DNA of 64,000 nt from a bacterium (GCA_030629005.1 DAOVPV010000007.1:6356-70355); one strand, 5' to 3'. Counted from the stretch's first letter, positions 30,138 through 62,556 are shown. A program made the numbers and translations. The notes: a model not told the origin generated them from the sequence alone.

Positions 30138-31688
30138 ATGAAAATAAAAAAAATTCTAATAGCCAACAGATCAGAGGTTGCAAGCAGAGTCATTTTTGCA
30201 TGCAAATCCTTAAACATCAAAACTGTAGCCATATACTGCAAAGAAGATCGTAATTTAGCCTATAACTTTCAGGCCGATGAAAATCACGAACTATCAGGAT
30301 CCGGAGCAAATACTTACTTAAATCAAAATGAAATTATCAAGATTGCAAAAAAATTAAATGTTGATGCTATACACCCCGGCTACGGTTTTTTATCTGAAAA
30401 TTCAATTTTTGCAAAAAAGGTCATTGATACAGGCATAAAATGGATTGGACCTAATCCAGAAATAATTAAACTTATGGGTAATAAAATAAATGCAAGAAAC
30501 ATCATGCAAAAAAACAATGTACCTGTAATTCCAGCAGAATTTATTACACATTCGGAAGAAACATTTAATGTTAATGCAAAAATAAAAATTCTTAAAAACA
30601 TCGTAAACAAAATAGGCCTACCTGTAATACTAAAGGATCCCCTTGGTGGTGGCGGCAAAGGAATAAGAACAATTTTTAACGCCTCAGATTTAGCGAATAC
30701 ATTCAATACAATAAAATCCGAAAGCGCTAGACTTACAGGCTCAACCCAAATATTAGTAGAAAAATACATAAAAACAGCAAGACATATAGAAATCCAAATA
30801 GCTGGTGATGGCAAAAACTTTATACATATGTATGAAAGAGAATGTTCAACACAAAGACGGCACCAAAAAATTATCGAAGAAGCCCCTTGCATTTTTTTAA
30901 ACAAAAAGCTTTTAAATAAAATTTATAAAGCTGCAATAAAAGCTATCAGCGCAATAAAATACAATAGTATAGGAACCGTTGAATTTATAGTTACTCCAGA
31001 CAACAATTTTTATTTTCTAGAAATGAATACAAGGTTGCAAGTAGAACATTCTGTAACTGAAGAAACAACAGGAATTGACTTAGTTCTACTACAAATAGAC
31101 TTGGCACAAAACAAAAAATTAAAATTAAAACAGTCTGAAATAACACTAAAAAATCATGCCATCGAATGTCGAATATATGCGGAAGATACTAACAACAATT
31201 TTACGCCAAACACAGGAATAATTACAAACTTAGAAATCCCAAATATGCCGCGAACAAGAATAGATCACAATTTAGAGAAATTTCTCGAGATTACAGCAAA
31301 CTTTGATCCTATGCTTGCCAAAATCACATGTTCCGGACAAACCAGAGACATTGCAATAAAAAATACACTTACAGTTCTTAATCAAACTAAAATAGACGGA
31401 TTAAAAACAAACATCGACTTTCTAAAAAAACTATTGCAGACAAACGAGTTTGTTTCCGGACAAATTAATACTCAAACGGTAGAATCTGACTCTTTTAAAA
31501 AAAACATATTAAAAGACTGCAACAATAATAAATTGGAACAGTCTAAACTGGAACAGTCTAAACTGGAACAGTCCCAATTGGAACAAGCTGAAATAGCAGC
31601 AATCTTTTCTATATTTATAAAAGAACAAATAAACAAACAATTATTAACAAGAATTAGTAAAAATTGGGGGAAAAGATCATGGCAATAA
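30138..31688 (+). CDS. accC: Biotin carboxylase (acyl-CoA carboxylase alpha-like, N-terminal part)
   Basis: ILIANR, IHPGYGFLSEN, GGGGKG, RECSTQRRHQK, FLEMNTRLQVEH; contains a 7-aa repeat-derived insert. Confidence 0.93.
   Translation: MKIKKILIANRSEVASRVIFACKSLNIKTVAIYCKEDRNLAYNFQADENHELSGSGANTYLNQNEIIKIAKKLNVDAIHPGYGFLSENSIFAKKVIDTGIKWIGPNPEIIKLMGNKINARNIMQKNNVPVIPAEFITHSEETFNVNAKIKILKNIVNKIGLPVILKDPLGGGGKGIRTIFNASDLANTFNTIKSESARLTGSTQILVEKYIKTARHIEIQIAGDGKNFIHMYERECSTQRRHQKIIEEAPCIFLNKKLLNKIYKAAIKAISAIKYNSIGTVEFIVTPDNNFYFLEMNTRLQVEHSVTEETTGIDLVLLQIDLAQNKKLKLKQSEITLKNHAIECRIYAEDTNNNFTPNTGIITNLEIPNMPRTRIDHNLEKFLEITANFDPMLAKITCSGQTRDIAIKNTLTVLNQTKIDGLKTNIDFLKKLLQTNEFVSGQINTQTVESDSFKKNILKDCNNNKLEQSKLEQSKLEQSQLEQAEIAAIFSIFIKEQINKQLLTRISKNWGKRSWQ
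30552..30572 (+). repeat. 21-bp core element, in frame in accC (SEETFNV)
   Basis: TCGGAAGAAACATTTAATGTT. Confidence 0.95.
31530..31589 (+). repeat. 15-bp tandem repeat x4 encoding KLEQS x3 + QLEQA
   Basis: AAATTGGAACAGTCT AAACTGGAACAGTCT AAACTGGAACAGTCC CAATTGGAACAAGCT. Confidence 0.9.
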
Positions 31689-32308
31689 AAAGACTCTATA
31701 TTAATAACAACTTATATAAACTAGAAATAAAAAATTCTGATAAAAATAATTTTTTAATAACAATGAACAATAAAGAAGTTACAGTAATAAAAAAATCGGA
31801 AGAACACACCCAGTCTTCGCGCAAGGCTTCGACGGGTACGGCGAGTGTGGGAACATTTAATGTTAGCGAAGAAAATAATAATATTTTATTAGAAATAAAC
31901 GGCAAACTATATAAAGCAAAGAAAATTAAACAAACAAAATATTATACAGAAATTTACATCTATAATTTTAATACGTCTTTTAAAATACAAAATAAGCACA
32001 AATCAAAAATAATACCCGCAAGATTAGCTAATACTAATAATGTTTTTAAAAATAAATTATTTGCACCAATTCCAGGCAAAGTCATAACAGTTCACTGTAA
32101 ACCCAATGATTTTGTAAAAAAGAATCAAACACTCATTACAATAGAATCTATGAAGATGGAAAACGAAATAAAAGCATTCACGGACTGTTTTATAAAAAAC
32201 ATTCAAATTACCAAGCTCGATTTGGTAAGACAAGATGATGTGTTAATAATTTTTTCTAAAAAGGGAGAGAATAGCCGTGGAACAAAAAATAAAAATGGGC
32301 CAACGTAA
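31679..32308 (+). CDS. accB: Biotin carboxyl carrier protein with N-terminal BT-like domain
   Basis: APIPGKV...ESMKMENE biotinylation motif; overlaps accC end; contains a 23-aa repeat-derived insert. Confidence 0.88.
   Translation: MAIKRLYINNNLYKLEIKNSDKNNFLITMNNKEVTVIKKSEEHTQSSRKASTGTASVGTFNVSEENNNILLEINGKLYKAKKIKQTKYYTEIYIYNFNTSFKIQNKHKSKIIPARLANTNNVFKNKLFAPIPGKVITVHCKPNDFVKKNQTLITIESMKMENEIKAFTDCFIKNIQITKLDLVRQDDVLIIFSKKGENSRGTKNKNGPT
31796..31864 (+). repeat. 69-bp nested element, in frame in BCCP (SEEHTQSSRKASTGTASVGTFNV)
   Basis: TCGGAAGAACACAC-CCAGTCTTCGCGCAAGGCTTCGACGGGTACGGC-GAGTGTGGGAACATTTAATGTT; 2 mismatches to 55634-55702. Confidence 0.95.
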
Positions 32309-32678
32309 ATTTAGAATCGGTGAGCTAGCAGAACAATTAAATGTAAAAAAGTTTGTTATACGCTTTTGGGAAAAAGAGTTTGACCTAAAATCAGATCGAT
32401 CCGGCGGAGGACAAAGATTCTATTCTCAAGAAGACTTCGAAAAATTCACTTTAATAAAGAATCTTTTATACGTAAAAAAATTCACAATACCAGGAGCCAA
32501 AAATCAAATTCAAAGCTTAAATCATTCAAACAATATAACTCCTGCAATAAAGGAGCCGGAGCAAAATAATCCTCAAATACAAGAAGATTCCACAAATGAA
32601 TACAATGAAATATTCACAAAAATAAAACACCTCAAACAACAACTAGAAAACTTTGCTGCAAAATTAAACTTTAAATAA
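32277..32678 (+). CDS. MerR-family HTH transcriptional regulator
   Basis: FRIGELAEQLNVKKFVIRFWEKEF..RSGGGQRFYS. Confidence 0.9.
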   Translation: MEQKIKMGQRKFRIGELAEQLNVKKFVIRFWEKEFDLKSDRSGGGQRFYSQEDFEKFTLIKNLLYVKKFTIPGAKNQIQSLNHSNNITPAIKEPEQNNPQIQEDSTNEYNEIFTKIKHLKQQLENFAAKLNFK

Positions 32679-32682
32679 TCAA

Positions 32683-33372
32683 TCACTTAATAGATAAATG
32701 ATGTACGCAAGCCGGCGGTATATTCGCTAGAACTTTATCCTGGTCAAATTCAAACTTATTAACAAAATCGTTTGTTGTTGTAATTGTTTTAGAATATTGA
32801 TTTTTTTTCTCACCAGTTAAAAAAAACAACTTAACTTTAGCTAAAGCAATATATTCAAAATAAGAAATTATACCGCCCGGTTTTATTAAACCCTCGTACG
32901 TCTTCAAAACTTGTTTTAAAAAATCTGCAGAAAATGCATTAAATGGCAAGCCTGAAATTATATAATCATATAAATATTTAGGCTTCCAATCCAATATAGA
33001 AACACAATTAATTTTTACATTTTTGCGTTTCCCAAATTTTTCATTCAAAATTTCACAAAAATCAGAATCTAACTCAACAATATCCAGCTTATCCTGAGTT
33101 CTCAACTTCTTTAAAATATTAACAGTCATAGAACCTGTTCCAGCTCCAACCTCTAATATTCGTACCGGCTCACCAAAAATATTTATGTGCTTTGTTACAG
33201 CATTAGCCAAAAATCTAGAACTTGGAACTATCGCACCAACAGAATCGGGCTTGGCCAAAAATAATTTAATAAAAACAAAGGAATCGCTAAAAAAAGATCT
33301 AAAGTTTGGAAAAACAAATATTAAAGAAAAAAATAAAAGCGCAACAAACAACCAAGATCTACTTTTCTTCAT
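32683..33372 (-). CDS. Class I SAM methyltransferase, PmtA-like phospholipid N-methyltransferase
   Basis: VGAIVPSSRFLA, LEVGAGTG, ISGLPF, NIPPA; N-terminal membrane anchor. Confidence 0.75.
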   Translation of the reverse strand: MKKSRSWLFVALLFFSLIFVFPNFRSFFSDSFVFIKLFLAKPDSVGAIVPSSRFLANAVTKHINIFGEPVRILEVGAGTGSMTVNILKKLRTQDKLDIVELDSDFCEILNEKFGKRKNVKINCVSILDWKPKYLYDYIISGLPFNAFSADFLKQVLKTYEGLIKPGGIISYFEYIALAKVKLFFLTGEKKNQYSKTITTTNDFVNKFEFDQDKVLANIPPACVHHLSIK

Positions 33373-62479: not shown

Positions 62480-62494
62480 AACATTTGATTCTGC

Positions 62495-62534
62495 AAATAG
62501 GAATGGCGAGCAAAAATGCTCGCCATTCCTATTT
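62495..62534 (+). terminator. Perfect 18-bp hairpin after the 1056-aa gene
   Basis: AAATAGGAATGGCGAGCA-AAAA-TGCTCGCCATTCCTATTT. Confidence 0.8.
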
Positions 62535-62535
62535 A

Positions 62536-62556
62536 TCGGAAGAAACATTTAATGTT
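62536..62556 (+). repeat. 21-bp core element
   Basis: TCGGAAGAAACATTTAATGTT. Confidence 0.95.

Follow-up and report, generated by a model that had tools for sequence, protein, structure and literature searches.

The 64,000-nt stretch of DNA analysed here (the window) contains genes recognised by Pfam as AccC, BCCP, TruB and a TrmD fusion, and within and between its genes lie 19 copies of a short repeat built on TCGGAAGAAACATTTAATGTT (Table). The initial annotation had given these four genes the same names, which Pfam bore out, but its labels 'tolA', 'lipoprotein' and 'ankyrin' belong to ORFs without a Pfam hit at E<=0.001. Rfam at gathering thresholds detected two tRNAs and nothing else in the window.

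The 19 copies listed in that annotation are real. Twelve of them, entered as 21-nt copies in the Table, match the motif at <=3 mismatches, against 0.03 expected by chance and with 0/100 shuffles giving 12, and the other seven are variants (69-, 60- and 36-nt forms and partial copies). Nine copies lie inside ORFs as had been proposed, and the seven in sense orientation are all read in the S-E-E frame (7/7). The pair at 57860 and 57888 is probably intergenic, because the ORF extension that would cover it lies upstream of the start of the congener orthologue.

Table. Copies of the repeat in the window, with positions counted from its first nucleotide.
Form	Position	Strand	Context
21-nt copy, perfect	30552..30572	+	sense in AccC; adds SEETFNV; Pfam, orthologue alignment and structure model
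69-nt long form	31796..31864	+	sense in BCCP-like ORF
21-nt copy, 1 mismatch	33795..33815	+	sense in TruB
21-nt copy, 2 mismatches	33846..33866	+	sense in TruB, 51 nt after the 33795 copy
21-nt copy, perfect	34374..34394	+	intergenic
21-nt copy, perfect	36074..36094	+	sense in 256-aa K/E-rich ORF without Pfam hit
21-nt copy, perfect	47176..47196	+	intergenic, tRNA gene ~80 nt downstream
33-nt degenerate copy	47965..47997	+	left end and start of core, right end decayed; between two ORFs
21-nt copy, perfect	51236..51256	+	antisense in 226-aa ORF (- strand); reads KTLNVSSD
69-nt long form	52059..52127	-	sense, C-terminal end of TrmD-fusion gene; prolongs ORF beyond relatives' stop
21-nt copy, perfect	52353..52373	-	sense in TrmD-fusion gene; absent from 10/10 family relatives
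partial copy	54276..54301	+	right part of GC-rich core and right end
69-nt long form, used as reference	55634..55702	+	5' edge of ffh ORF (- strand)
21-nt copy, 1 mismatch	55988..56008	+	intergenic, tRNA gene 10 nt away
60-nt form, 9 nt missing near right end	57526..57585	+	antisense, N-terminal region of 486-aa ORF
21-nt copy, 1 mismatch	57860..57880	+	probably upstream of true start of 57780-59234 ORF
21-nt copy, 2 mismatches	57888..57908	+	28 nt after the 57860 copy
36-nt form, core mostly deleted	59259..59294	+	intergenic, 14 nt before ATG at 59309
21-nt copy, perfect	62536..62556	+	intergenic

Copy number in the genome and among relatives

The window belongs to a metagenome-derived assembly of 15 contigs (1.05 Mb, 30% GC, 95% complete), whose nearest protein relatives are named Dependentiae/TM6. 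An exact Hamming scan of this genome found 116 copies at <=3 mismatches (41, 46, 23 and 6 at 0, 1, 2 and 3 mismatches), against a single match for a reversed control sequence, and an excess was still seen at 4-5 mismatches (57 for the motif versus 15 for the control). Seventy-five of the 116 copies (65%) are located in ORFs, in both orientations, 41 of them in sense. Differences between copies are mainly G-to-A changes at positions 4, 7, 19 and 3, and the copies now appear to decay neutrally, chiefly in this direction.

Searching the whole genome and its relatives, as the initial annotation had proposed, thus gives a lineage-specific family. An 18-mer core has 101 matches here and 0-2 in each of 40 relatives, three of which are congeners, and one congener contained no comparable k-mer. 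Elsewhere a 19-mer was found as singletons only, on 32 contigs from metagenomes and 13 from species genomes, none of close kin, and no closer strain turned up in the genome and metagenome collections scanned with it. Among 5.8 billion proteins the closest AccC sequences have 64-69% identity. The region itself was found in four DNA runs of one cold-seep study, with no RNA run among those listed.

Insertion sites, target preference and reading frame

Comparison with orthologues showed that the repeats are gains of sequence. The initial annotation had given AccC seven additional residues relative to E. coli; compared with relatives instead, the seven residues are missing in 5/5. Empty sites of this kind, which that annotation had suggested looking for, were also found in four more proteins, at one site each: the TrmD fusion, a dehydrogenase-like protein and two that are aaRS-like. 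At each of these sites the 7 aa are absent from 8-10 of 8-10 relatives. At the TrmD-fusion site (52353) all ten relatives have a gap of 7-10 columns, exactly 7 in five of them. At a fifth site the gap in relatives is 9 aa, which is explained by duplication of AATGTT, and one 69-nt copy is matched by a gap of precisely 23 aa. On a larger scale, 26 of 65 comparable CDS sites are exactly 7 aa longer than in one congener compared in full, 14 more are longer by 6, 8 or 9 aa, and the remaining 25 had messy or uninformative alignments.

Codon alignments at the empty sites gave a clean 21-nt gain without target duplication, in agreement with the earlier impression that no obvious duplication accompanies insertion. 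The possibility that the motif evolved in place was also checked, and orthologues proved shorter by exactly the motif rather than equal in length. We are highly confident that the copies are real, derived insertions that have spread as a family. For AccC, the predicted placement in a protein loop was borne out by a structure model (pLDDT 89.3), in which the insert lies in the loop between strand 133-137 and helix 145-159.

The conserved signal extends past the 21-mer, with G at +25 in 96/116 and A at +26 in 84/116 copies. Insertion is hence preferred 3 nt upstream of GA, or on the other strand 3' of TC-NNN: on the strand written AACATTAAATGTT..., T stands 5 nt upstream of the element in 84/116 copies and C 4 nt upstream in 96/116. 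The three bases adjoining the element are free, and two of five target positions are fixed. By our reading of the alignments, GA or TC was already present in relatives at three of four clean sites.

This target preference has consequences for the peptide. All sense copies in the window use the SEETFNV frame, but genome-wide the second stop-free sense frame pointed out in the initial annotation is used in up to 8/41 copies. The observed ratio of sense frames, 33:8, is as predicted by GA/TC availability (3.48:1, p=0.85), and that of antisense frames is 29:5 against a predicted 2.32:1 (p=0.06). The frame bias therefore follows from the GA preference 3 nt downstream, which favours GAN codons, and peptide-level selection is not required. 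That copies persist in genes is due to a length divisible by three and to four of six frames being stop-free. A striking frame bias can stem from target preference and codon composition alone, which calls for caution in claims of peptide selection.

Long form, strand polarity and search for a mobilising enzyme

The 21-mer consists of the 9-nt left end TCGGAAGAA and the 12-nt right end ACATTTAATGTT of the 69-nt form, which carries a 48-nt GC-rich hairpin core between them, flanked by a short GAA repeat. The 69-nt form is thus the parent or long form of the 21-mer. It is about ten-fold rarer than the short form, and deletion intermediates of 60 and 36 nt are present along with partial copies. 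One uniform 21-nt junction is shared by 87 copies at <=1 mismatch, with an 18-nt junction in one copy and 20- or 22-nt junctions in none. GC-rich modules like the core are also found elsewhere without the 21-mer ends, in 61 linked islands. The two ends are not inverted copies of each other, and terminal inverted repeats are therefore absent. Folding gave a single weak 5-bp AT-rich hairpin for the 21-mer and two hairpins for the 69-mer, and the DNA folds of both were no better than those of shuffles (z -1.7 to +0.3).

Orientation is strongly biased. In 104/116 copies the C-rich strand carries the motif as written (p=2e-19), the orientation reverses where the skew does on contig 8, and 62% of coding bases are on the G-rich strand. 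With replication direction inferred only from GC skew and gene-strand bias, and with dnaA not located at the skew switch, this bias would match the lagging-strand template.

No mobilising enzyme lies within the window, as the initial annotation had stated. Its proposal to look for HUH/Y1 and reverse transcriptase genes flanked by the motif was fruitful in part: the genome has a single intact Y1/HUH gene (C6:6011-6346), but the motif is not at its flanks, and the gene instead stands between 52-nt GC-rich inverted repeats of its own, which are unlike the 21-mer. The protein scores 82.9 bits with the IS200-type model and 29.3 bits with the RAYT model, whose cut-off is 80. Comparable Y1 genes are present in 3/3 congeners and 22/40 relatives, nearly all of which are motif-free. 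Because its end repeats differ and it is also present in motif-free congeners, this gene was rejected as the mobiliser, and no cognate enzyme was found. Reverse transcriptase, TnpB and IS110 transposase were not found in this 95% complete genome. Two Xer-like integrases are encoded, and one of their genes itself carries a motif copy. The genome also has 137 ORFs of at least 120 aa without a match in the congener, and an unrecognised enzyme could be among them.

Explanations and comparison with known systems

On balance, we consider it somewhat probable that the repeats are a lineage-specific family of miniature non-autonomous insertion elements with a single-strand type of spread in a Dependentiae (TM6) genome. 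The empty sites and exact 21-nt gains support the original proposal of a minimal non-autonomous element that adds peptides to proteins. According to this explanation both the 21-nt and the 69-nt form would spread to new sites. The active strand would be AACATTAAATGTTTCTTCCGA, as in 'peel and paste' transposition of the IS200/IS605 type, with an enzyme supplied in trans. The single-stranded element would then be inserted at a replication fork 3' of TC-NNN, and the GA preference would set the dominant SEETFNV frame. The single-strand, fork-coupled mechanism taken by itself is a nearly balanced question, on which we lean slightly to the negative side. In combination, the exact 21-nt gain without duplication, the fixed distance to a dinucleotide target and the polarity of about 90% provide a testable link to single-strand transposition.

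The forms of intermediate length might instead mean that only the 69-nt element is mobile and that 21-mers are scars left after in-place deletion of the core, either through replication slippage across its hairpin or because a nested GC-rich module was cut out precisely. The GAA repeat flanking the core fits such a deletion, and the linked islands without 21-mer ends suggest that the core might be an independent, nested element. However, more than 100 independent deletions should give more varied junctions than the one shared by 87 copies; the 18-nt junction predicted from the longer GGAA repeat occurs only once, and the long forms are the rare ones. We regard this reading as unlikely. New copies could also arise with no transposase of their own, if replication switched templates or an existing 21-mer were copied through microhomology into a stalled lagging strand. 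This would account for the failure to find a matching transposase and for GA occupying both positions 4-5 and positions 25-26, 21 nt further on. In some deviant copies the initial bases recur after the element (e.g. ATGGAA...ATGGAA at C14:134544), and there are local tandem or partial duplicates, 18-nt units lacking TCG and the AATGTT duplication. An origin of the two GA dinucleotides from target duplication or microhomology was tested and found to have little support, positions 4 and 25 covarying only weakly (A25 in 7/25 copies with A4 versus 10/89 with G4). Moreover, positions 1-3 (TCG) are conserved, whereas positions 22-24 are variable and pre-existing in relatives, and the boundaries of the element are sharp and constant. 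Such copying thus seems quite unlikely to us.

The motif could also be a functional strand-polar signal under selection whose spread is secondary, such as the binding site of a dimeric protein, an uptake sequence or a signal orienting replication or recombination. Its right end AACATT-T-AATGTT is indeed a perfect 13-bp palindrome, as had been noticed, and its strand polarity is strong. Intergenic copies are 3.5-fold enriched over a crude non-coding share of 9%, 31/41 non-CDS copies are directed towards the gene that follows, and about 10 end 9-17 nt before a start codon so that positions 22-27 form the Shine-Dalgarno site. This adjacency, however, is explained by the GA target preference, and the copies arose by insertion rather than by in-place substitution. 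Most (75/116) lie inside genes in both orientations, they vary by the GC-to-AT decay that unconstrained sequence should show, congeners live without the motif, and the left half, although not palindromic, is conserved to the same degree as the palindrome. As for uptake, the ComEC match is partial (153/270 model positions) with a stop inside. Taken together, selection on a signal is very unlikely to be the explanation. An assembly or sequencing artefact, with no point in its favour beyond a metagenome-derived assembly of 15 contigs, has a negligible chance of being correct: the 116 copies stand in unique contexts on 12 contigs, preserve frame, differ individually at single points and include graded variants. 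In an independent index of public runs, 98% of the words sampled from a 9.9-kb stretch with six copies were present, although the run concerned could be the sample of origin.

Returning to a family of miniature insertion elements, new here are the makeup of the 21-mer from both ends of the 69-nt form, the GA target and the orientation along GC skew. The 21-base element could rank with the smallest mobile DNAs observed so far. We also consider, as a speculation that is more doubtful than not, that the bare 21-nt sequence (9-nt left end, 12-nt right end and one 5-bp hairpin) is a complete transposition substrate. It would be inserted strand-specifically at replication forks by an enzyme that is unrecognisable from its flanks or of an undescribed type, and would act as an in-frame tagger of essential proteins. 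If this were true, the 21-mer would be the smallest mobile DNA known, and its own movement would set a new lower bound on the sequence that a transposition system needs. In addition, more than 70 independent 7-residue insertions in conserved proteins, together with the empty sites of relatives, would then constitute a natural experiment on insertion tolerance.

In the literature, the motif strings were found only in unrelated papers, and keyword-matched passages of Dependentiae genome papers mention no such repeat. Uptake sequences (USS/DUS) are likewise species-specific oligomers in and between genes with preferred reading frames. They are thought to accumulate through substitution and biased uptake, in contrast to the clean 21-nt insertions with strand polarity and the orthologues shorter by exactly the motif found here. 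Classical MITEs differ by their terminal inverted repeats and target-site duplication, both of which are absent here.

According to passages of two papers, IS200/IS605 elements have no inverted repeats, cause no duplications, insert 3' of a tetra- or pentanucleotide and are biased to the lagging-strand template (PMC5027513, PMC3333891). The 21-mer resembles them in lacking terminal inverted repeats and target duplication, in its fixed orientation and apparent insertion to one side of a short specific sequence, in an orientation bias that would fit the lagging-strand template, and in the presence of a Y1 transposase gene in the same genome. It differs from them in having one weak hairpin instead of two subterminal hairpins and in a target of TC plus three free bases, where theirs directly abuts the end; furthermore, the repeats flanking the Y1 gene do not match the 21-mer. 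Known transposase-less derivatives of IS200/IS605 are about 100-200 nt, far longer than 21 nt.

REP sequences, as described in passages of PMC3333891, measure 30-40 nt in E. coli; they are species-specific, contain hairpins, occur in many copies and have a single-copy Y1 enzyme as their presumed mobiliser. The 21-mer is similar to such REP/BIME repeats in being very short, high-copy, hairpin-containing and species-specific, and the Y1 gene within inverted 52-nt GC-rich repeats forms a REPtron-like unit. However, the 21-mer has no GTAG foot, is not extragenic (65% in ORFs) and does not form inverted pairs. The Y1 gene is flanked by repeats of another family, and its protein scores as IS200-type.

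The Rickettsia palindromic elements (RPE) named in the initial annotation as a longer parallel are, in the parts of the review used here, repeats of about 150 bp that form ten families and occur in Alphaproteobacteria, inserted in-frame in unrelated housekeeping genes whose proteins are apparently functional, with no transposase known (PMC10969869). They are indeed several times longer than the 21-nt unit. Compared by this description, both are short non-autonomous repeats of obligate intracellular hosts that insert in-frame and add a conserved peptide, and the present family is distinguished by its 21-/69-nt unit, its occurrence in Dependentiae, its target preference and its polarity relative to the replication strands.

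Copies and empty sites

The 21-mer TCGGAAGAAACATTTAATGTT has 12 matches in the window at ≤3 mismatches, where shuffled sequence gave a mean of 0.03 and reached 12 in 0 of 100 shuffles. The remaining seven of the 19 places listed in the initial annotation are genuine variants of the same 21-mer/69-nt element. A genome-wide search was also proposed there; in the source genome G000 (1.05 Mb, 15 contigs, 30% GC, with the window in contig 11) an exact Hamming scan gave 41, 46, 23 and 6 copies at 0, 1, 2 and 3 mismatches, 116 in total, against 0, 0, 0 and 1 for the reversed sequence. 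At 4–5 mismatches the excess over the reversed control persisted (57 vs 15). A crude ORF map (91% coding) puts 75 of the 116 copies within ORFs and leaves 41 at their edges or outside them; intergenic copies are enriched 3.5-fold. Among the host gene labels, Pfam recovered AccC, the biotin carrier, TruB and a TrmD-methyltransferase fusion, but tolA, the lipoprotein and the ankyrin protein had no match at E ≤ 0.001.

The proposed extra seven residues of AccC were borne out by a gap of exactly 7 residues at the insert site in 5/5 relatives. Further alignments with 8–10 family relatives covered four proteins: the TrmD fusion, two aaRS-like proteins and a dehydrogenase-like protein that has two sites. 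The insert was missing from every family relative at all five sites. The gap was exactly 7 residues at three sites; at the TrmD-fusion site it spanned 7–10 alignment columns (exactly 7 in 5/10 relatives), and at the fifth, whose element has an additional AATGTT, it was 9 residues. For the congener genome G001, compared in full, counterparts were found for 65 of the 75 ORF-embedded copies. Within 10 residues of the motif, the length difference was exactly +7 in 26 and +6, +8 or +9 in 14, and the other 25 comparisons fell at sites with several events, in stretches of low identity or in N-terminal extensions. When the 26 clean cases were aligned by codon, each had gained exactly 21 nt, in some cases within a codon; no target duplication was seen, as the initial annotation had suspected, and no loss. 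One 69-nt copy corresponded to an exact 23-residue gap, and in the TrmD fusion the 69-mer lengthens the C-terminus past the stop position of all relatives. Because G001 proteins are only 40–80% identical to those of G000, nucleotide-level boundaries of the element rest on the cleanest sites. Taken together, these alignments indicate that the 21-mer copies are insertions.

Inserts had been expected in loops. AccC was modelled with AlphaFold (mean pLDDT 89.3); residues 139–145, the insert, are predicted as coil between strand 133–137 and helix 145–159, in a block whose confidence of 78 is the lowest in the catalytic part. The C-terminal tail of AccC also carries a tandem KLEQS repeat (KLEQSKLEQSKLEQSQLEQ), missing from the five relatives and modelled as a low-confidence helical part. 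The TrmD fusion is a single 510-aa ORF in which the tRNA m1G methyltransferase is joined to another SAM-dependent RNA methyltransferase domain (PF09936); 10/11 family relatives searched keep the fusion.

The nearest AccC relatives (64–69% identical) have source names such as candidate division TM6, Candidatus Dependentiae and Candidatus Babeliales, which places G000 in Dependentiae. An 18-nt core at ≤1 mismatch has 101 matches in G000 and 0–2 in each of 40 relatives; three of these share its genus and a further eight its family. Among 185,579 species genomes, 13 contigs have a single copy of a 19-mer, as do 32 metagenome contigs; none of these comes from close kin, and no close strain of G000 turned up in the genome and metagenome collections. 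G001 has no comparable high-copy complex k-mer, and two other repeat families are common to both genomes.

Target, frame and strand

A sequence logo of the 116 copies showed 21 conserved positions, three free ones, then G in 96 and A in 84; a mild A-richness marks the four bases upstream, and the remaining flank is unconserved. This GA at +25/+26 lies outside the inserted DNA; in alignments read by eye, it pre-exists in relatives at 3/4 clean sites. On the opposite strand, the element is placed 3′ of TC-NNN.

The initial annotation stated that all 7 sense copies use the SEETFNV frame. This frame is dominant genome-wide but not exclusive, and the 33:8 ratio of the two stop-free sense frames fits the 3.48:1 predicted from GA and TC counted by codon phase in G000 ORFs (p=0.85). 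Antisense frames were 29:5 against a predicted 2.32:1 (p=0.06), and the second residue after the motif was E or D in 22/33 copies. Hence, the GA target preference, together with the high number of GAN codons, accounts for the dominance of SEETFNV. It also accounts for the frequent position of intergenic copies beside Shine-Dalgarno GGAG sites. Positions 3–19 of the 21-mer hold GGAAGA, 9 nt and then ATG. When the 21-mer lands a single base ahead of a start codon (flank xATGA), this ATG is in frame, two codons upstream of the host start, and could supply a replacement for it.

The written strand of the 21-mer lies on the locally C-rich strand in 104/116 copies (p=2e-19), and orientation flips at a skew switch on contig 8 (about 60–65 kb), a place where genes diverge as well. 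The G-rich strand carries 62% of coding bases; within genes, unlike the skew polarity, 41 sense and 34 antisense copies are near balance. If skew is read in the usual way as a guide to replication direction, the strand that has TC-NNN and then AACATTAAATGTT... would lie on the lagging-strand template. Most variants are G-to-A changes, with 25, 18, 13 and 10 copies affected at positions 4, 7, 19 and 3; this looks like the decay expected without constraint under the base bias of G000. A ComEC match (Competence, PF03772) in the skew switch region spans 153/270 model positions with a TAA inside, and is perhaps the remnant of a competence gene. The dnaA gene is on another contig, away from any skew switch.

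Origin, candidate enzymes and other repeats

In the 69-nt form, TCGGAAGAA on the left and ACATTTAATGTT on the right enclose a GC-rich core of 48 nt whose outer stem is CACAC/GTGTG, and direct joining of these two ends gives exactly the 21-mer. About ten long copies exist, each at its own locus. Either the core was deleted independently about a hundred times, or the short form arose once and then spread by itself. Joins of exactly 21 nt occur in 87 copies (≤1 mismatch), an 18-nt join occurs once and 20- or 22-nt joins are absent; this uniform junction favours a single origin and own spread.

The element has neither inverted repeats nor duplication, an apparently fixed orientation to a short target and a lagging-strand-template bias (with direction taken from skew); such traits are hallmarks of IS200/IS605 single-strand transposition in PMC5027513 and PMC3333891. 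Single-strand transposition of the 21-mer is a possible, tentative reading, and no mobilising enzyme was identified among the candidates searched. A 134-aa Y1/HUH gene with HUH and Tyr motifs scores 82.9 bits with the IS200 model and 29.3 bits, under cut-off, with the RAYT model. As mobiliser it is counted against by its own inverted 52-nt GC-rich flanking repeats, seen again at about five loci, by similar genes in all three congeners and 22/40 relatives, nearly all motif-free, and by the single weak hairpin of the 21-mer, which gave no signal in a DNA folding test. RT, TnpB and IS110 were not found in G000.

With its repeats (AGCCTGCGTGAGCGGGCGACTTTATGGTAGCCC...GCGTTGGGCG), the Y1 gene forms a REPtron-like unit outside the window; the repeats also form inverted pairs elsewhere, one enclosing a decayed Y1 remnant. 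A second family of about 30 nt (ACTGGATCCTGAAACAAGTTCAGGATGACA), also present in G001, is spread genome-wide in G000, mostly between genes and usually as two inverted copies around a 15–20-nt variable spacer. A conserved hairpin is suggested by stem positions that change together (GGATCC/GGATAC/GGACCC, each with its matching partner); this family has no skew polarity (32 with, 25 against). GC-rich modules without 21-mer ends (CCAG[TC]CTTCGC...AAGGCT...CGGNCA[CG]G) form 61 linked islands in this 30% GC genome, several beginning exactly at a tRNA gene 3′ end; a like module is the core of the 69-nt element, and another lies within a second-family copy (C2:131376). An undecaprenyl-diphosphatase-like ORF adjoining the Y1 gene contains no fewer than three distinct short inserts: a GC-rich unit present in duplicate (GMTNAECGP twice), the 21-mer in its rarer frame (QTKHLMF) and a second-family copy (ILNLFQDP). 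This ORF suggests that in-frame mini-insertions may be a general habit of G000.

Locations of element variants and neighbouring features (C, contig of G000)
Feature	Location	Remark
69-nt form	window 31796	
69-nt form	window 52059	minus strand
69-nt form	window 55634	
60-nt form	window 57526	
36-nt form	window 59259	
Partial copy	window 47965	
Partial copy	window 54276	
AccC ORF	window 30138-31688	
TrmD-PF09936 fusion	window 52035-53567	minus strand
xATGA landing	C2:125868	
xATGA landing	C5:3024	
xATGA landing	C8:99798	
xATGA landing	C12:8281	
ComEC match	C8:62928-63377	
dnaA	C1:43820	
REPtron-like unit	C6:5840-6500	
Y1/HUH gene	C6:6011-6346	
Undecaprenyl-diphosphatase-like ORF	C6:6489-7532	
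52-nt GC-rich repeats	C9:18251-18418	
52-nt GC-rich repeats	C9:33437-33748	
52-nt GC-rich repeats	C2:8331-8462	
52-nt GC-rich repeats	C8:159278	
Second repeat family	C2:50264-50330	
Second repeat family	C8:4312-4380	
Second repeat family	C11:4952-5010	just upstream of the window
GC-rich modular island	C2:62058-62191	
GC-rich modular island	C2:157706-157933	
GC-rich modular island	C10:2732-2800	

Comparison with known systems

Literature searches with the motif strings matched unrelated papers only, and keyword passages in the main text of Dependentiae genome papers do not mention such repeats. The nearest mechanistic parallels are IS200/IS605 and REP/RAYT, although defining features of each are missing from the 21-mer element. 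The nearest functional parallel is the Rickettsia palindromic element, which also inserts in frame in many genes. As the initial annotation noted, that element is several times longer: about 150 bp in the review PMC10969869, compared with 21 nt, or 69 nt in the long form, for the mini-element here.
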